IMG/VR virus record: IMGVR_UViG_2698536552_000004
Direction: 5' to 3' (one strand)
Source of the DNA: a virus
Lineage: Duplodnaviria; Heunggongvirae; Uroviricota; Caudoviricetes
Length of the DNA stretch: 10,259 nt
In this document: positions 1-10,259 of the stretch, in pieces
Layout: every line of letters begins with the position of its first letter
How positions within the stretch are numbered: the first letter of the stretch is position 1
Made by a program: the position numbers and the translations under genes
Notes under the pieces: generated by a model
What the model saw: the letters and a program-made list of their open reading frames with translations, nothing else
What the model was told of the DNA's origin: nothing
Databases searched by the model: none

Positions 1-414
1 GGCGGCTTCAACAGTGAAACAGTACAGGACGTCATGCTGGGAGCGGTGGAACGCCGCTTCGGCAACGAGCTTCCGGCGTCTCCAGTAGAGTGGCTGACGG
101 ATAATGGTTCATGCTACCGGGCTAATGAAACACGGCAGTTTGCCCGGATGTTGGGGCTTGAACCGAAGAGCACGGCGGTGCGGAGTCCGGAGAGTAACGG
201 CATAGCAGAGAGCTTCGTGAAAACGATAAAGCGTGACTACATCAGTGTCATGCCCAAACCAGACGGGTTAACGGCAGCAAAGAACCTTGCAGAGGCGTTC
301 GAGCATTATAACGAATGGCATCCGCATAGTGCACTGGGTTATCGCTCGCCACGGGAATATCTACGGCAGCAAGCCAGTAATGGGTTAAGTGATAACAGGT
401 GTCTGGAAATATAG
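1..414 (+). CDS. insD: IS2 transposase OrfB (rve/DDE integrase core), C-terminal fragment; 5' end outside window
   Basis: Frame 1 is open from position 1 to TAG at 412-414. The translation ...[36 protein letters not shown] matches the C-terminus of IS3-family OrfB, specifically IS2 InsD as I recall it. Confidence 0.85.
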
Positions 415-425
415 GGGCAAATCCA
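1..425 (+). mobile_element. IS2 (IS3 family) insertion sequence, 3' portion including right terminal inverted repeat; left part lies outside the window
   Basis: The window opens inside a transposase ORF that stops at 412-414. The element then ends ...GGTGTCTGGAAATATAGGGGCAAATCCA at 425, which I recognise from memory as the IS2 right end. Sequence character changes to phage replication genes immediately after. Confidence 0.8.
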
Positions 426-533
426 GCGTTCATCAGCCCCCGCATTGCCGACAGGATCACAGACGGGGGGCGCAACTGGTTGTCGTTCAACTGGCCCAGC
501 TACCGTTCTTGTATCAGAGGTGTGGCTGCATGA
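426..533 (+). pseudogene. 3' remnant of the replication-module gene upstream of the helicase (likely initiator or helicase loader), interrupted by IS2
   Basis: The frame is open from the IS2 end to TGA at 531-533 (...NWLSFNWPSYRSCIRGVAA*) with no start codon. Its stop overlaps the helicase ATG as ATGA, the usual coupling between a lambdoid initiator/loader gene and its helicase. The identity of the disrupted gene is inferred, not seen. Confidence 0.35.
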
Positions 534-1921
534 CAACACCAGTCTGGCGTAATGATGACCTGGAAGGCGCTGTCATTGGCGCATTCTTTCTGCGTGGGGC
601 AGATCATGAAGTGATGGATATTCTGATCACACTACCGGCGGACATTTTTTCTGTACGAGCGTATCGGGATATCTACACAGGCATCTGCAGACAGGCCCGT
701 GTTTCAGGAGTGATTGACCCCGTGCTGTTGTGTAATGAGATGCCGGAACTTGCCCCGGTGATTACTGATACCGGGCGTAAAACCTGGGTGAAGTCTTCAC
801 TGGAGCACTATGTTGCAGCGTTGCGGCGCAATGCCGCACTGCGCGATGCAGAAAAAACACTGAATGAGGCGCTGCAGAAATTACGTGATGCGCATACCTG
901 TGAAGCAGCTGAAGATGCCCTGAAGGATGCGCAGAACATGATGGTCACACTGTCGACAGGAAAGGGCGTCATTCAGCCGGTACATATTGATGATGTGCTT
1001 CCGGAAGTGGTTGAGCGTGTTGAATGCCGGAATCAGGGGCTGGAGAAATCCAGGACGTTGATGACCGGTATTGATGAACTGGACGCAAAAACAGGCGGTA
1101 TGGAGCCCGGAGACCTGGTATTCATTGCCGCCCGTCCTTCGATGGGGAAAACCGAACTTGCGCTGGACATCATCGACAAGGTGACTGAGCAGGGGCATGG
1201 TGTGCTTCTGTTCACCATGGAGATGGCGAACATCCAGATTGGTGAACGTATGGTGTCTGCGGCTGGAGGGATGCCAGTATCACGCCTGAAATCTGTGGCT
1301 CACTTTGAAGATGAAGACTGGGCGCGTTTCTCACAAGGGGTGGGGCGGATGACCGGGCGCAATATCTGGATGGTGGACCAGGCGAACCTGACCATTGATG
1401 AGATATGCGCAACAACGAAACACCATCTGATTAAACATCCGGAAACGGCGCTGGTGGTGGTTGATTATCTCGGGCTGATAAAAACCCGAACCACGGGGCG
1501 TCATGACCTTGCCGTGGGTGAAATCTCAAAGGGGCTTAAAGGCCTGGCAAAATCCGGTGGTTTTCCGTTGATTGCGCTGAGCCAGCTCTCCCGCGGTGTG
1601 GAGTCCAGACCCAATAAACGTCCCATGAACTCAGACCTGAAAAATTCCGGAGAAATAGAGGCGGATGCAGACATCATTCTGATGCTTTACAGGGATGAAG
1701 TGTACAACCCGGATACACAGGCTACAGGCATAGCAGAAATTAATATCACGAAACAACGTAACGGTTCTCTGGGGACGATTTACCGGCGTTTTTATAACGG
1801 ACATTTTCTGCCTGTGGACCAGGAAAGCGCACAGGTTCTTTCCACCCCAATGCGGCAGCCCCAGCCGCGCAGATACAGCAATACACGTACCGACAGCAGT
1901 AAGATGGAGCGTTTCTTTTGA
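530..1921 (+). CDS. DnaB-like replicative DNA helicase (phage P22 gp12-type)
   Basis: ATG at 530 is preceded by GAGGTG at 516-521. The N-terminus has a DnaB N-domain-like motif (LEGAVIGAFFL). The C-terminal RecA-like domain carries Walker A (AARPSMGKTELAL), Walker B (ALVVVDYLGL) and the SQLSR motif (IALSQLSRGVESRPNKRP), followed by DADIILMLYRDEVYN. The ORF-track start at 389 lies inside IS2 and is rejected. Confidence 0.9.
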   Translation: MTTPVWRNDDLEGAVIGAFFLRGADHEVMDILITLPADIFSVRAYRDIYTGICRQARVSGVIDPVLLCNEMPELAPVITDTGRKTWVKSSLEHYVAALRRNAALRDAEKTLNEALQKLRDAHTCEAAEDALKDAQNMMVTLSTGKGVIQPVHIDDVLPEVVERVECRNQGLEKSRTLMTGIDELDAKTGGMEPGDLVFIAARPSMGKTELALDIIDKVTEQGHGVLLFTMEMANIQIGERMVSAAGGMPVSRLKSVAHFEDEDWARFSQGVGRMTGRNIWMVDQANLTIDEICATTKHHLIKHPETALVVVDYLGLIKTRTTGRHDLAVGEISKGLKGLAKSGGFPLIALSQLSRGVESRPNKRPMNSDLKNSGEIEADADIILMLYRDEVYNPDTQATGIAEINITKQRNGSLGTIYRRFYNGHFLPVDQESAQVLSTPMRQPQPRRYSNTRTDSSKMERFF

Positions 1922-1932
1922 ACAACCAGACA

Positions 1933-2175
1933 ATGACTTTTACCTCTGAACAATTGCGTAAACACGCGCAGGAAATGTTGCGACAGGCGGAACAACTGGA
2001 AAAAACAGGTGTAACAAAAGATGCCATTCGTCGGGATATGGTGCCAGCGCTCAGGGAACTGATGCAGGCGAAACATCGCGCACAAAAAGCGGTGGATGAG
2101 CTCGTTGATTGTGTGGCAGAGCTGGAAACCAAAGTTGGAAAGTTTGAAAAAATGGTGCAGGAGGTGCTGCGCTGA
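1933..2175 (+). CDS. hypothetical small coiled-coil protein (nin-region ORF)
   Basis: An 80-aa ORF from ATG 1933 (MTFTSEQLRK...), charged and helical with no recognisable catalytic motif. Its stop TGA at 2173-2175 overlaps the rusA ATG. The track start at 1918 is TTG and less likely. Confidence 0.5.
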   Translation: MTFTSEQLRKHAQEMLRQAEQLEKTGVTKDAIRRDMVPALRELMQAKHRAQKAVDELVDCVAELETKVGKFEKMVQEVLR

Positions 2176-2546
2176 TGCGCCATGAGTTTATTTTACCTTA
2201 TCCGCCGACGGTGAATACTTACTGGCGACGTCGTGGCAGCACATATTTTGTATCAAAAGTTGGTGAGCGTTATCGCCGTGATGTGACGCTAATTGTTCGC
2301 CAGCAGCGGCTGAAATTAAACCTGTCCGGAAGGCTGGCGATAAAGATTATTGCAGAGCCACCGGATAAGCGCCGTCGTGACCTGGACAATATCCTGAAAG
2401 CACCACTGGATGCGCTGACGCATGCCGGACTACTCATAGACGACGAGCAGTTTGATGAAATCAATATTGTGCGCGGTCAGCTCGTTCCTGGTGGGCGACT
2501 GGGCGTGAAGATTTATGAAATCACAGGTGATAACGATGGCGCGTGA
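2175..2546 (+). CDS. rusA: RusA-family Holliday junction resolvase
   Basis: [16 protein letters not shown]...YR...[30 protein letters not shown]... aligns along its whole length with E. coli RusA as I recall it, including the catalytic acidic cluster (RRRDLDN, DDEQ). RBS GAGGTG sits at 2161-2166. Confidence 0.9.
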
Positions 2547-2922
2547 TATTCAGCAGGTTATGGAACGGTGGGGGGCTTGGGCTGCAAACACTCATGAAGA
2601 TGTATCCTGGGCGTCGATCGCTGCTGGTTTTAAAGGGTTAATTCCGTCGAAAGTGAAATCACGCCCTCAGTGTTCTGATGATGATGCAATGATAATTTGT
2701 GGCTGTATGGCCCGGTTGAACAAGAAAAATCAGGATTTGCACGATTTGCTGGTGGATTATTACGTAGGTGGAATGACTTTTATGAGTCTGGCACGGAAAC
2801 ATGGGTGTTCGGATACCTGTATTGGCAAGCGCCTGCAGAAAGCGGAAGGGGTTATTGATGGCATGTTGATGATGCTTGATATCCGGCTGGAGATGGACAG
2901 ATACGTAGAACGAATTATGTAG
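2536..2922 (+). CDS. late-gene antiterminator Q (DLP12 QuuD / phage-21-like Q family)
   Basis: [35 protein letters not shown]...[16 protein letters not shown]...[23 protein letters not shown]...[24 protein letters not shown] closely resembles the short Q protein of the DLP12 cryptic prophage, from memory. RBS AGGTGA at 2524-2529 precedes ATG 2536, which overlaps the rusA 3' end. The track start at 2515 is less likely. Confidence 0.8.
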
Positions 2923-2926
2923 GTGC

Positions 2927-2956
2927 TTGACCAGACACATTGTCCGGGGCTATATT
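2927..2956 (+). promoter_or_regulatory. candidate late promoter pR' (sigma70 -35 TTGACC / -10 TATATT) immediately downstream of Q
   Basis: TTGACC at 2927-2932, an 18-nt spacer, then TATATT at 2951-2956. Position directly after the Q stop matches lambdoid pR' architecture. The Q-binding and pause elements cannot be defined without experiment. Confidence 0.5.
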
Positions 2957-3017
2957 CCTCACGCGCCAGCAAAATCTGGCGTCGGGATTGGAACCCCGGA
3001 TAGAGACCGCGACAGAC

Positions 3018-3040
3018 ACACGCCGCGAGCGTGTTTTTTA
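3018..3040 (+). terminator. intrinsic terminator (candidate tR') ending a short 6S-like leader transcript
   Basis: A 6-bp GC-rich stem (ACACGC / GCGTGT) with a 5-nt loop, followed by TTTTTTATT, lies about 55-80 nt downstream of the predicted pR' start site. Confidence 0.55.
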
Positions 3041-3167
3041 TTGTCGTATGCACGCGCACATCTGAATTATGGTGGGGCGCATGGGGGAGCTGAAAAGCTC
3101 GCCGGTCGGTTTCCCGGTAGTTCCAACCCTGTGCGTCTCACCACCCGATGATTGGAACCTGACGGTG

Positions 3168-3196
3168 TTGACAGTTTCAGGTTTGCAGTTTACATT
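3168..3196 (+). promoter_or_regulatory. candidate sigma70 promoter upstream of the ORF6N-like gene
   Basis: Consensus -35 TTGACA at 3168-3173, a 17-nt spacer, then TACATT at 3191-3196. It lies downstream of tR', so it could drive Q-independent expression. Sequence match only. Confidence 0.3.
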
Positions 3197-3402
3197 TCCC
3201 CGCGGTGCTCAAAACACCTCGAAAGCGGTATCCACACCCGATAGCCATGTGGTTTTTTTGTGTCCAGAATTCTTGGTTTATGACCGGGTGTGCGGCTAAT
3301 ACAATACCAGCAATGGAAATACGCCCGCCGACTTTCGACGGTTTTGAGCGCCCGGTCACCCTCTCAAAAGGGGTAAATCAAAATATTCGAAAGGACATGT
3401 CT

Positions 3403-3926
3403 ATGAATCGCACGTCTATTGAAAAACTCCCGTCACTTACGCATAACCATCTTCCTGTCATGACAACAGAGCTGCTGGCTGATTTGTACGGAACAGAGCG
3501 CCAGCGTTTGACAAACAATTTCAATCGAAACAAAGAACGGTTTATAGAAGGTAAACATTTTTTCCTGATAGAAGGTGATGCGTTACGAGAGTTGAAGAAC
3601 GAAAACTCTTTAAGAGTTTCTGTGAAAATTGCCCGTAACGTTCGCTCCCTCATCCTCTGGACAGAACGTGGCGCAGCCCGTCACGCCAAAATGCTCGAAA
3701 CCGATCAGGCGTGGGAAGTGTTCGAAAAACTGGAAGACTGTTATTTCAACCAGAAACAGCCACCAGCGGCACAAAACACATCTATCGAAAATGATGGATG
3801 CGCATTACTGAGCCACTTCGATAAACACGGTCAGGTTGAGTTCACGGAAAAGGTACCCGCCGATGCGATGGTATGTACTCTGGAACGGTTTAAATTTTAT
3901 CTGGAGCAACACGGGTGGATCGTTGC
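3403..3926 (+). CDS. ORF6N-domain (phage antirepressor-like) protein, N-terminal part; 3' end hidden by N-mask
   Basis: RBS AAGGA at 3391-3395 precedes ATG 3403. MNRTSIEKLP...LPVMTTELLADLYGTERQRLTNNFNRNKERFIEGKHFFLIEGDALRELK matches the ORF6N/antirepressor N-domain signature as I recall it. The frame is open into the mask starting at 3927. The track start at 3205 is rejected, as the upstream stretch has no RBS and odd composition. Confidence 0.55.
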
Positions 3927-4159
3927 NNNNNNNNNNNNNNNNNNNNNNNNNNNNNNNNNNNNNNNNNNNNNNNNNNNNNNNNNNNNNNNNNNNNNNNNNN
4001 NNNNNNNNNNNNNNNNNNNNNNNNNNNNNNNNNNNNNNNNNNNNNNNNNNNNNNNNNNNNNNNNNNNNNNNNNNNNNNNNNNNNNNNNNNNNNNNNNNNN
4101 NNNNNNNNNNNNNNNNNNNNNNNNNNNNNNNNNNNNNNNNNNNNNNNNNNNNNNNNNNN

Positions 4160-4235
4160 NNNNNNNNNNNNNNNNNGTCAGAGCGAGCGACTCATAATCG
4201 CCAGGTCGCTGGTTCAAGTCCAGCAAGGGCCACCA
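4160..4235 (+). tRNA. tRNA with CAU anticodon, ileX-like (tRNA-Ile2 or Met); 5' ~17 nt inside the N-mask, start estimated
   Basis: The visible 59 nt (4177-4235) contain anticodon loop CUCAUAA, T-arm GCTGG-TTCAAGT-CCAGC and the acceptor 3' strand plus CCA. They align to the 3' 59 nt of E. coli ileX as I recall it. The start is extrapolated assuming 76 nt. Confidence 0.7.
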
Positions 4236-4236
4236 A

Positions 4237-4313
4237 CCACCACTAGCTCATCCGGATAGAGCATCAACCTTCTAAGTTGACGGTGCGAGGTTCGAGTCCT
4301 CGGTGGTGGGCCA
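4237..4313 (+). tRNA. tRNA-Arg (anticodon UCU)
   Basis: Manual cloverleaf: acceptor CCACCAC/GTGGTGG, D-stem GCTC/GAGC, anticodon stem TCAAC/GTTGA with loop CTTCTAA, T-arm CGAGG-TTCGAGT-CCTCG, discriminator G and encoded CCA. It resembles the argU-type tRNAs carried by lambdoid and Stx phages. Confidence 0.8.
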
Positions 4314-4315
4314 GC

Positions 4316-4391
<76 letters not shown>

Positions 4392-4394
4392 TAT

Positions 4395-4469
<75 letters not shown>

Positions 4470-4893
4470 GCGAGATTTGAGACGAAGGTTGTTATTTGCA
4501 CTGACACAATATTGTGTGGGAATGTCTGACTCCTTACCATCTCCTGTTCTGTGATGTTGTTTTGTTGCAGTTCCAGTGCTCTTTTTTCAGCACCAGNNNN
4601 NNNNNNNNNNNNNNNNNNNNNNNNNNNNNNNNNNNNNNNNNNNNNNNNNNNNNNNNNNNNNNNNNNNNNNNNNNNNNNNNNNNNNNNNNNNNNNNNNNNN
4701 NNNNNNNNNNNNNNNNNNNNNNNNNNNNNNNNNNNNNNNNNNNNNNNNNNNNNNNNNNNNNNNNNNNNNNNNNNNNNNNNNNNNNNNNNNNNNNNNNNNN
4801 NNNNNNNNNNNNNNNNNNNNNNNNNNNNNNNNNNNNNNNNNNNNNNATGGCCTTTTTTCTTTCCGATAGCACAGGTCTGTCGGGGGGCGGGAT

Positions 4894-6416: not shown

Positions 6417-6680
6417 NNNNNNNNNNNNNNNNNNNNNNNNNNNNNNNNNNNNNNNNNNNNNNNNNNNNNNNNNNNNNNNNNNNNNNNNNNNNNNNNNNNN
6501 NNNNNNNNNNNNNNNNNNNNNNNNNNNNNNNNNNNNNNNNNNNNNNNNNNNNNNNNNNNNNNNNNNNNNNNNNNNNNNNNNNNNNNNNNNNNNNNNNNNN
6601 NNNNNNNNNNNNNNNNNNNNNNNNNNNNNNNNNNNNNNNNNNNNNNNNNNNNNNNNNNNNNNNNNNNNNNNNNNNNNNNN

Positions 6681-7099: not shown

Positions 7100-8829
7100 G
7101 CCGGAAATCTTACCCCAACGTAAATGCTGCAAATCAGTATGCCCGGGATGTCGTGCGCGGAAAGATTGTTGCCTGCCAGTTTGTGATTCAGGCCTGCCAG
7201 CGCCATCTTGATGACCTGATGGCGGAAAAAAGTAAGTCGTTTCGTTACCGCTTCGACAAGGACCTGGCTGAACGGGCCGCGAAATTTATTCAGCTGTTGC
7301 CGCACACCAAGGGGGAGTGGGCATTCAAACGGATGCCCATCACGCTGGAGCCGTGGCAGCTATTTGTGATCTGCTGTGCGTTTGGCTGGGTCAATAAAGG
7401 CACCCGGTTGCGCCGCTTCCGGGAGGTGTACACCGAAATCCCCCGTAAGAACGGCAAATCAGCAATCTCTGCCGGTGTTGCCCTGTATTGTTTTGCCTGT
7501 GATAACGAGTTTGGCGCGGAAGTGTATTCCGGTGCCACGACAGAGAAACAGGCGTGGGAAGTCTTTCGCCCGGCGCGACTGATGTGTAAACGCACACCCA
7601 TGCTGACGGAAGCGTTCGGGATTGAGGTTAACGCCTCAAACATGAACCGTCCGGAGGATGGCGCGCGGTTTGAACCGCTGATCGGCAACCCAGGTGATGG
7701 TTCATCACCCCACTGTGCCGTGGTTGATGAATATCACGAGCATGCCACCGATGCGCTTTATACCACAATGCTTACCGGGATGGGGGCGCGACGTCAGCCA
7801 CTGATGTGGGCCATCACCACCGCCGGGTACAACATTGAGGGGCCGTGCTACGACAAGCGGCGGGAAGTCATCGAGATGCTCAACGGCTCGGTGCCTAACG
7901 ATGAACTGTTCGGGATCATCTATACCGTTGATGAAGGTGACGACTGGACCGGCCCGCAGGTGCTGGAAAAAGCCAATCCAAATATTGGCGTGTCGGTTTA
8001 TCGCGAATTTTTGTTAAGTCAGCAGCAGCGTGCGAAAAATAACGCCCGTCTGGCAAACGTCTTTAAAACAAAACACCTCAATATCTGGGTGTCGGCGCGT
8101 TCGGCGTATTTCAACTTGGTGAGCTGGCAGAGCTGCGAGGATAAATCACTGACCCTTGAGCAGTTCGAGGGGCAGCCGTGCATTCTGGCCTTTGACCTGG
8201 CGCGTAAGCTGGATATGAACAGCATGGCGCGACTTTATACCCGCGAGATTGACGGTAAAACGCATTACTACAGTGTGGCCCCGCGTTTCTGGGTACCGTA
8301 TGACACGGTGTACAGCGTCGAGAAAAATGAAGATCGACGGACAGCCGAACGCTTTCAGAAATGGGTGGAAATGGGCGTTCTGACCGTTACCGATGGTGCG
8401 GAGGTGGATTATCGCTACATCCTCGAGGAGGCCAAAGCGGCGAACAAAATCAGCCCGGTCAGTGAGTCACCCATCGACCCCTTCGGGGCGACCGGGTTGT
8501 CACATGACCTTGCTGATGAAGACCTGAATCCCGTCACTATCGTCCAGAACTTCACCAATATGTCCGATCCGATGAAAGAGCTGGAAGCAGCGATTGAATC
8601 GGGACGTTTTCATCATGACGGCAATCCCATCATGACCTGGTGTATCGGCAACGTGGTCGGCAAAAACATGCCGGGTAACGATGATGTGGTGAAACCCGTC
8701 AAAGAGCAGGCGGAAAACAAAATCGATGGTGCAGTTGCGCTGATTATGGCGGTTGGCAGAGCCATGCTGTACGAGAAAGAAGACACGCTGTCTGACCACA
8801 TTGAGTCCTACGGGATCCGCTCGCTTTAA
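7096..8829 (+). CDS. terminase large subunit (HK97-like TerL, ATPase + nuclease)
   Basis: A 577-aa ORF translationally coupled to TerS. Size, position and the overall ATPase-then-nuclease layout are typical of TerL. No antisense ORF of comparable quality. Confidence 0.9.
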
Positions 8830-8840
8830 CTGAGGTAATT

Positions 8841-9023
8841 ATGATCATGCTGATTCTCGCGCCTCTGGTGGGCGTGCTGGGTGCGCTTTTGCTGGCGTAT
8901 GGTGCCTGGCTGATTTATCCCCCGGCGGGTTTTGTTGTTGCCGGGGCGCTGTGCCTGTTCTGGTCGTGGCTGGTGGCGCGATATCTCGACCGTACACGGC
9001 AGTCTGTCGGCGGAGGTAAATAG
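8841..9023 (+). CDS. small hypothetical membrane protein (two predicted TM helices) between terminase and portal
   Basis: [65 protein letters not shown] at 8832-8836 precedes ATG 8841 (a second ATG lies at 8847). Its stop TAG 9021-9023 abuts the portal GTG. The coding call rests on ORF context only. Confidence 0.45.
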
Positions 9024-10179
9024 TGTTCTTTTCGGGATTATTTCAACGAAAAAGCGATGTGCCGGTGACCACGCCAGCAGAACTGCTGATGCTATCGGGC
9101 TGTCATACGACACCTATACCGGAAAGCGGATCAGTAGCCAGCGGGCCATGCGCCTGACGGCGGTCTATTCTTGCGTCAGGGTGCTGGCAGAGTCTGTTGG
9201 TATGCTGCCCTGCAGTCTCTACAAAATCAGCGGTACCCTGAAAACACGGGCGGTGGATGAACGACTGCATAAGTTGGTTTCGGCAAAACCTAATGGCTAC
9301 ATGACACCGCAGGAATTCTGGGAGCTGGTTATTGTCTGCCTGTGTCTACGGGGGAATTTTTACGCCTACAAGGTAAAGGCACTGGGAGAAGTGGTGGAGC
9401 TTCTTCCGATAGATCCGGGCTGTGTGGAACCGAAGCTGAACAGCCAGTGGCAGCCGGTTTATCAGGTGACGTTTCCGGATGGTTCCGTGGATGTGTTGAC
9501 CCAGAATGAAATCTGGCATGTGCGCACCCTGACGCTGGATGGACTTGTCGGGCTGAATCCCATTGCGTATGCGCGTGAGGCCATTTCACTGGCAGCGGCA
9601 ACCGAGGAGCACGGTGCCAGGTTGTTTAGTAATGGTGCGGTGACATCCGGTGTGTTGCGTACGGAACAAAAGCTCACGCCGGATGCTTACGAGCGTCTGA
9701 AGAAAGATTTTGAGGAGTGTCACACGGGGCTTGGCAATGCTCACCGCCCGATGATTCTGGAAATGGGGCTGGACTGGAAGTCGATGGCGCTGAACGCCGA
9801 GGACAGTCAGTTCCTGGAAACCCGCAAGTTTCAGCTGGAAGAAATCTGTCGTCTGTTCCGGGTGCCGTTGCACATGGTGCAGAACACCGATCGCGCCACC
9901 TTCAACAATATCGAAGAGCTGGGGCTGGGATTTATCAACTATTCACTGGTGCCGTATCTGACCCGCATCGAACAGCGGATCAACACCGGACTGGTACGAA
10001 AAAGTAAGCAGGGCGTTTATTACGCCAAATTTAACGCCGGGGCGTTACTGCGCGGGGATATGAAGTCCCGTTTTGAAGCCTACGCCACCGGGATCAACTG
10101 GGGAATTTACTCTTCCAATGACTGCCGCGACCTGGAAGATATGAATCCGCGTCCCGGTGGTGTAATGCCGATCAGTTAA
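9023..10179 (+). CDS. portal protein (HK97 family); N-terminal ~20-45 codons in a different frame from the body, so apparent frameshift or possible pseudogene
   Basis: GGAGG at 9012-9016 and GTG at 9023 open a frame-2 ORF (MFFSGLFQRKSDVPVTTPAEL...) that stops at about 9160. The long portal body runs in frame 1 to TAA at 10177-10179 (...AVYSCVRVLAESVGMLP...ARLFSNGAVTSGVL...). Frame 1 has no RBS-associated start before ATG 9148. The track start at TTG 8932 translates a Cys/Trp/Arg-rich stretch overlapping the upstream gene and is rejected. Confidence 0.6.
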
Positions 10180-10211
10180 GGATCAGTTGACCGATCCAGT
10201 GGCTGTGTAAG

Positions 10212-10246
10212 AATCCGGAAACGCTCACTTGTTTCCGGATTTTTTT
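10212..10246 (+). terminator. strong rho-independent terminator downstream of the portal gene
   Basis: A perfect 10-bp stem (ATCCGGAAAC / GTTTCCGGAT) with an 8-nt loop, followed by TTTTTT. Confidence 0.6.
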
Positions 10247-10259
10247 ATGCACATTGGAC

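Follow-up and report, generated by a model that had tools for sequence, protein, structure and literature searches.

A complete IS2 forms a chimeric ypjA/helicase-loader junction at the edge of a prophage remnant in Shigella sonnei

The chromosome of Shigella sonnei carries a fixed, complete IS2 that very probably forms a chimeric junction between the chromosomal gene ypjA and a phage helicase-loader gene, beside a dead prophage remnant of about 10 kb that is bounded by IS2 and IS4, and no hybrid promoter has arisen at the junction; we put the probability of this reading at about 0.87. The left end of the element abuts codon 459 of ypjA/ehaD, and its right end the last 108 nt of a phiP27-like loader gene. 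The stretch of DNA analysed here (the window; 10,259 nt, IMG/VR virus record IMGVR_UViG_2698536552_000004) begins inside IS2 and contains the right-hand side of this junction together with the phage genes that follow it (Table 1). A preliminary description of the window had proposed that IS2 inserted into the replication module of a prophage just upstream of the helicase gene. Its interpretation is right in naming IS2, in the kind of gene that was truncated and in the separation of the helicase from its native promoter, whereas a simple insertion and a hybrid promoter are not supported, and the prophage is a dead remnant and not merely impaired in replication.

Table 1. Features of the window at its two bounding IS elements and in the replication genes (window coordinates, nt)
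Feature	Position	Strand	Basis and remarks
IS2, 3' part	1..425	+	Same orientation as the helicase gene; the full IS2 is 1331 bp in S. sonnei genomes
IS2 OrfB/InsD, C-terminal part (transposase catalytic domain)	1..414	+	Stop TAG 412-414; Pfam and ORF listing
IS2 right inverted repeat (IRR), 41 bp	385..425	+	Tip ...GGGGCAAATCCA; read from the sequence
Chimeric ORF, 44 codons	399..533	+	GTG in the IS2 IRR, 9 IS2 codons, then the loader remnant; ORF list and translation
Outward -35 hexamer TGGAAA of the IS2 minicircle-junction promoter (candidate)	404..409	+	Position derived from the 17-nt spacer rule
DnaC/IstB-like helicase loader, 3' remnant	426..533	+	35 codons and stop; alignment with the intact E. 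coli, phiP27 and S. flexneri genes
Shine-Dalgarno-like GAGGTG	517..522	+	7 nt before the helicase ATG, inside the remnant; kept in four aligned homologues
DnaB-like replicative helicase, 463 aa, intact	530..1921	+	Pfam DnaB_C, 7.8e-73
IS4-family element, left end, truncating the portal gene	10164..10259	+	Read from the sequence (start approximate); right boundary of the remnant

The IS2 element and the truncated loader gene

The first 425 bp of the window give a gap-free alignment at 96.2% identity with 907-1331 of the element annotated as 'insertion sequence:IS2A' in Escherichia coli K-12 (IS2A; NC_000913.3 381260-382590; IS3 family), and window position 425 is the final base of IS2, exactly at the tip of the IRR. 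The transposase part of the window (1-414) matches the Pfam domains rve_3 (2e-18) and rve (4.9e-08). The complete element can be read in S. sonnei 53G (locus L005 of the set fetched for this analysis, 8566-9896), where it has the expected length of about 1.33 kb (1331 bp) and is 97.6% identical to IS2A from end to end, again without gaps; to other E. coli copies of IS2, including those on large E. coli plasmids, it is 99.9% identical. Its terminal inverted repeats are imperfect, with an IRL of 42 bp starting with TAGACTGG and an IRR of 41 bp ending with CAAATCCA, and have the same tips as those of IS2A; the IRR tip is identical in the window, in IS2A and in a second IS2 copy of S. sonnei. An IRR of 41 bp and the TGG...TTAA of the IS2 bottom strand have been described before (PMC3299598). 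Gene calling gives two overlapping ORFs, orfA (121 aa) and orfB (301 aa), or a fused product of 409 aa, with the A6G window for -1 frameshifting (slip site AAAAAAG at about 8974-8980 of L005) and the DDE (rve) domain. The S. sonnei copy thus has the length, the IRL and IRR tips, both ORFs, the slip site and the rve domain in common with IS2A, and differs from it in having no 5-bp target duplication and in linking two sequences that are unrelated.

To the right of the element, homology to uninterrupted prophages begins exactly at window position 426 (position 6001 of L001; individual matches start at 426-428), and from there on the window is up to 97.7% identical to E. coli prophages and 93.5% identical to phiP27. 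The first 108 nt encode AFISPRIADRITDGGRNWLSFNWPSYRSCIRGVAA followed by a stop, which corresponds to residues 258-292 of a 292-aa loader and agrees with the protein of E. coli RMDEC465 at 34 of 35 positions; a four-way alignment places the breakpoint between ...GAGTTGTGG and GCGTTCATC, that is, at loader residue 257/258. The TGA of the loader gene overlaps the ATG of the helicase gene (530) as ATGA in all four aligned sequences. The matched gene of intact prophages is annotated as 'ATP-binding protein' or 'DnaC-like helicase loader' (292 aa in RMDEC465, P27p18 in phiP27), and its product carries the Pfam domains IstB_IS21 and Bac_DnaA at residues 112-269. The AAA+ domain (PF01695/PF00308) lies almost entirely upstream of the break and is not found in 426-533, while the C-terminal homology and the stop that overlaps the helicase start are kept; judged by alignment and domain content, 426-533 is a gene fragment and not a loader protein in its own right.

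The preliminary description had named the element IS2 and set its right end at 425, and both statements are upheld by the gap-free alignment, which ends on the last base of IS2A, and by the full-length copy in S. sonnei. It had further taken the truncated upstream gene to be either an initiator or a helicase loader; alignment and domains identify it as the loader (DnaC/IstB-like, AAA+), and the comparison with uninterrupted homologous prophages that it recommended places the break inside the loader ORF. The remnant had been described as 36 codons without a start that end in the ATGA overlap. Remnant and overlap are indeed present, but the remnant is not strictly startless, as a potential start, the GTG at 399, opens the frame and yields the chimeric ORF; in all other respects the observation was confirmed. 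No Shine-Dalgarno motif precedes GTG 399 in the sequence, the second S. sonnei IS2 copy carries an ATG at the corresponding place, and nothing in the sequence suggests that the chimeric ORF is used.

The prophage remnant and its orphan helicase

The genes that follow IS2 are, from left to right, the loader remnant, the helicase gene, an 85-aa ORF, RusA and the Q antiterminator, and then a small-RNA/antirepressor region, a tRNA array, holin, lysozyme, Rz, an HNH endonuclease, TerS, TerL, a 60-aa ORF and the portal gene. The latter (9148-10179, 343 aa, with a full Pfam Phage_portal domain) reads into the IS4-family element and stops there. We take this element, whose neighbouring gene at the boundary encodes a 442-aa Nterm_IS4/DDE_Tnp_1 transposase, to start at about 10164, to judge by its terminal repeat. 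About 96 nt of IS4 are included before the window ends, which fits a short-read contig that runs from IS2 to IS4, and none of the fetched S. sonnei loci has capsid, tail or other phage genes past IS4. The remnant of about 10 kb has no integrase, immunity/repressor region, early promoter, initiator, functional loader, capsid or tail genes at the locus, and 257 loader codons (the 5' 771 nt, corresponding to L001 5230-6000) are absent from it as well. What lies between the truncated ypjA and the yfjF-bamE spacer runs only from the truncated loader gene to the truncated portal gene, which does not amount to an inducible lambdoid prophage. The Stx2e phage phiP27 (P27p18 loader, P27p19 helicase) and related E. 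coli prophages have the same gene order and the same ATGA overlap; S. sonnei differs from them in that only the last 35 loader codons are kept, both arms are missing and the remnant is located between ypjA and bamE and not at yecE. The suggestion that the insertion affects the replication competence of the prophage understated the case: both sides of the prophage are missing from the locus, and what is left is a dead remnant with an orphan helicase, not a prophage that is impaired in replication but otherwise complete.

Downstream of Q, four small-RNA families are matched at the Rfam gathering level (c4-a1b1 at 2950-3002, isrK at 2963-3039, C4 antisense RNA at 3065-3148 and sRNA-Xcc1 at 3282-3365), directly upstream of an ORF6N antirepressor-like gene. 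From these matches, 2950-3365 looks like an immunity/antirepressor cassette of the P1/P7 C4 antisense type, comparable to the isrK locus of Salmonella. The tRNA array (4237-4469), which follows the Q region and precedes the lysis genes, reads Met/Ile(CAT)-Arg(TCT)-Thr(TGT)-Gly(TCC); its CAT-anticodon tRNA, partly masked in the window, lies at 13627-13703 of L005, and the same array is annotated in the prophage of E. coli RMDEC465.

The helicase gene itself is intact. Its DnaB_C match spans positions 2-247 of the 255 in the profile, the N-terminal DnaB domain scores 22.3 bits and so falls just below the cut-off of 23 bits, and annotations of E. coli and phiP27 call the same gene 'replicative DNA helicase'. 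A terminator-like hairpin, GCGCTGTCATTGGCGC with a T-rich tail, is present at 567-582 within the 5' part of the ORF; one such site against a mean of 0.9 in shuffled sequences is probably due to chance.

As had been proposed, the helicase gene is separated from its native promoter: the early promoter of the prophage is no longer at the locus, either for the helicase or for the genes downstream of it. The same description held that an outward-facing -35 element of IS2 might supply a hybrid promoter instead. Such an element is known from the IRR of IS2 (PMC3299598; PMC9330008), the IS2 minicircle-junction promoter Pjunc needs a spacer of exactly 17 nt, made up of 16 nt of the IRR and 1 bp (PMC3299598), and IS2 activates neighbouring genes, with documented hybrid promoters such as that of ampC (PMC9330008). 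The hexamer TGGAAA is indeed present in the window, 16 nt from the IRR tip and facing the neighbouring gene. Jaurin and Normark are said to have reported the activation of ampC by an IS2-generated hybrid promoter in 1983. At the S. sonnei junction the same outward TGGAAA is followed by a flank without a functional -10 at the 17-nt spacing: the candidate hexamers are GCGTTC at a spacer of 16 nt (0/6 consensus matches), CGTTCA at 17 nt (1/6) and GTTCAT at 18 nt (3/6, without the essential A at position 2), and a consensus scan of the + strand found no promoter in window 1-1000. The -35 was thus correctly recognised but the promoter was not borne out; we rejected this candidate, and to judge by these hexamers a hybrid promoter at the junction of IS2 and its flank is unlikely. 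Weak read-through into the helicase gene from PIRL, a weak IS2 promoter repressed by OrfA (PMC3299598), is conceivable, as IS2 is co-oriented with the gene; no strong terminator was found between the transposase stop and the ATG at 530. In our reading the helicase gene, which has its own ribosome-binding site, would be transcribed only by read-through from this promoter or from ypjA.

These features bear on a further reading, in which a hybrid promoter derived from IS2, or read-through, leads to expression of the orphan helicase, possibly with translational coupling to the 44-codon ORF, and the gene has been retained for a function in the host. Several observations speak for such a reading: an intact 463-aa ORF with its own Shine-Dalgarno motif, a co-oriented IS2 without a strong terminator before the helicase start, a chimeric ORF that is in frame and ends in ATGA, and the known capacity of IS2 to activate its neighbours; the identity of the intact ORF across very many assemblies could likewise reflect selection. 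However, spacers of 16-18 nt offer no acceptable -10 and the promoter scan was negative, the chimeric ORF has no Shine-Dalgarno motif before its GTG, the loader that places a DnaB-type helicase on DNA is destroyed, and identity of the helicase would be expected from clonality anyway, as S. sonnei is a young clone. Moreover, the gene has been hit in one S. sonnei strain: CP104423.1 carries a 1263-bp element (L014, 2171-3433) in reverse orientation at about window position 760, inside the helicase gene, which encodes a 272-aa IS3-family OrfB and which we take to be IS600-like. In S. flexneri (L021-L024, 10001-12150) the homologous loader is intact (292 aa; 1148 blocks of the assembly collection contain the exact protein), whereas elements of the IS3 and IS66 families have cut the helicase next to it down to 424 aa; this is an independent decay of the same module and is uninformative for the event in S. 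sonnei. The insertion in CP104423.1 and the IS-truncated helicase of S. flexneri argue that the helicase is dispensable, and we consider its retention for a host function improbable. The narrower proposal that it was captured under the control of IS2, being transcribed by read-through from the IS2 promoter and translated from its own Shine-Dalgarno motif or by coupling to the 44-codon ORF, and kept for a role at the level of the host, for instance interference with the replication of incoming phages or with host DnaB loading, we regard as very improbable. Within the chimeric-junction reading, the helicase gene most likely persists as a passenger without function until it decays.

The left flank and the origin of the junction

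To the left of the IRL, the S. sonnei loci contain an ORF of 459 codons that reads into IS2 and stops in the IRL, and the 5' part of the loader gene is not there. The ORF corresponds to codons 1-459 of ypjA/ehaD, a chromosomal gene for an adhesin-like autotransporter, and its 459-aa product has AIDA repeats. The DNA of this flank is 97.9-99.5% identical to the 5' part of ypjA/ehaD of E. coli and the adjoining fragment of a pinH-like recombinase gene, and farther left follow ypjC, ygaQ and csiD/glaH, the normal E. coli backbone. The pentamers that flank IS2 are GTTGC on the ypjA side and GCGTT on the side of the loader remnant, so that there is no 5-bp target duplication. Two control copies of IS2 do have one, namely IS2A of K-12 (ATTAC/ATTAC) and the second copy of S. 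sonnei (GTGTC/GTGTC). Because the target duplication is missing and the two flanking sequences are unrelated, the element is a chimeric junction and not a simple insertion.

These findings also answer the simple-insertion model of the preliminary description. In that model IS2 would interrupt the loader gene of a prophage that is complete in other respects, and the element would be adjoined on its left by the 5' part of this gene and a 5-bp duplication. The right junction, taken on its own, is of the normal type for IS2 insertion, with a break inside an ORF and an intact IRR tip. Against this, ypjA is on the left in every S. sonnei locus examined, the flanking pentamers differ, and the 5' part of the loader gene is absent within 10 kb on either side of IS2 in the S. 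sonnei loci examined. Extension to the left, which had been put forward as the way to verify the insertion, led to the left end of IS2 and, beyond it, to ypjA instead of the loader gene, with no duplication and no contiguous target. For the S. sonnei genomes examined, a simple insertion is refuted by these observations. The locus is a clean example of how a missing target duplication exposes an IS-mediated rearrangement.

Two routes could have led to the chimeric junction. IS2 may have inserted first, followed by an IS-mediated deletion or inversion, or IS2 may have inserted independently into ypjA and into the loader gene, and the two copies then underwent homologous recombination. A reciprocal inversion or translocation between two IS2 copies would leave another IS2 that is preceded by ...GTGGGCGTT and followed by the continuation of ypjA after GTTGC. 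An abundant N-terminal loader fragment of S. sonnei was not seen in a protein search and cluster sampling with 40 members per cluster; the same sampling found intact loader homologues in E. coli, S. flexneri and S. dysenteriae and one rare full-length variant labelled S. sonnei. We also considered a simple model of adjacent deletion, which would start from related E. coli prophages beside ypjA or ssrA; the closest ones are at yecE or elsewhere and yielded no reconstruction.

Compared to the E. coli backbone (L013, 21967-36969), the S. sonnei locus (L015, 1770-15830) is without about 15 kb, which comprise the 3' part of ypjA, the ssrA island with its integrase, ssrA, smpB, ratA and yfjF. No tmRNA gene was found in the fetched S. 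sonnei loci, and this local absence of ssrA-smpB from the usual position is the sole point that may merit a look at the whole genome. The remnant reads from ypjA towards bamE. Had the prophage been integrated at ssrA, with the integrase adjoining that gene, we would expect the opposite orientation; this points to one inversion or more, and more than one rearrangement has likely taken place at the locus. The right flank of IS4 depends on the strain (L015 from about 15830 onward compared with L017 from about 14500 onward): in some strains IS4 is followed by the yfjF-bamE spacer, bamE, recN, nadK and grpE, in others by raiA-pheL-pheA-tyrA-aroF, which is consistent with an inversion polymorphism mediated by IS4.

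Distribution of the junction and its place among Shigella rearrangements

The junction is fixed in the S. sonnei chromosome and common to all S. sonnei genomes examined. Window 1-3926 is 100% identical in ten S. sonnei loci, among them 53G (HE616528.1), and the same IS2 is in the same place in six further S. sonnei loci that were fetched via the terminase protein (16/16 in total). The exact helicase protein is encoded on S. sonnei chromosomes such as that of 53G and occurs in 3506 indexed blocks of the assembly collection; most contigs with this protein are 2-10 kb long, as expected because the segment is bounded by repeats. A DNA search of 5426 complete E. coli genomes, a set with no S. sonnei chromosome, gave no match that spans the junction of IS2 and the loader remnant, and the exact junction likewise had no match among the GTDB species-representative genomes, in which Shigella is folded into E. 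coli. IS elements are classic points of mis-joining and the window resembles a short-read contig bounded by IS2 and IS4, but an assembly artefact, with contigs collapsed or mis-joined at the repeated IS2, has next to no plausibility given the identical ypjA-IS2-loader arrangement in 15 independently assembled, chromosome-scale S. sonnei records (4.8-5.0 Mb) from different laboratories.

The event is of a known kind, ordinary IS-driven genome decay, and the loader and helicase are ordinary members of phiP27-type lambdoid families. Another study reportedly deals with IS-driven genome reduction and rearrangement in Shigella. The expansion of IS1, IS2, IS4, IS600 and IS911 in Shigella has been described together with pseudogenisation, deletions and rearrangements (Hawkey et al., 2020, PMC7373316). 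The locus shares with IS-mediated genome reduction in Shigella the presence of IS2, IS4 and IS600 at one place, pseudogenisation, loss of DNA and inversion polymorphism; there is no difference in kind, and it is one specific instance that we did not find individually described. The segment is best annotated as a remnant of an S. sonnei prophage between IS2 and IS4, for which a ypjA pseudogene and a loader-gene fragment are to be entered on either side. It shows why short-read contigs of S. sonnei end where they do, and has little import beyond annotation.

A second IS2 is located, in inverted orientation, inside the bounding IS4 of L015 (14190-15520); it is 97.6% identical to the first copy, carries the GTGTC duplication and is found in only some S. 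sonnei strains (L015, also L014, L016, L003, L006, L007, L009 and L011). The only apparent differences between the window and the S. sonnei loci are three runs of N in the window, at 3927-4176, 4597-4846 and 6417-6680 (250, 250 and 264 nt), and we rejected these mismatches as real differences, since the runs are masked sequence. The corresponding stretches of S. sonnei measure 247, 506 and 241 nt, by which the downstream coordinates of the window are shifted relative to the genome, and under the first of these runs the ORF6N gene ends and the tRNA with the CAT anticodon begins.
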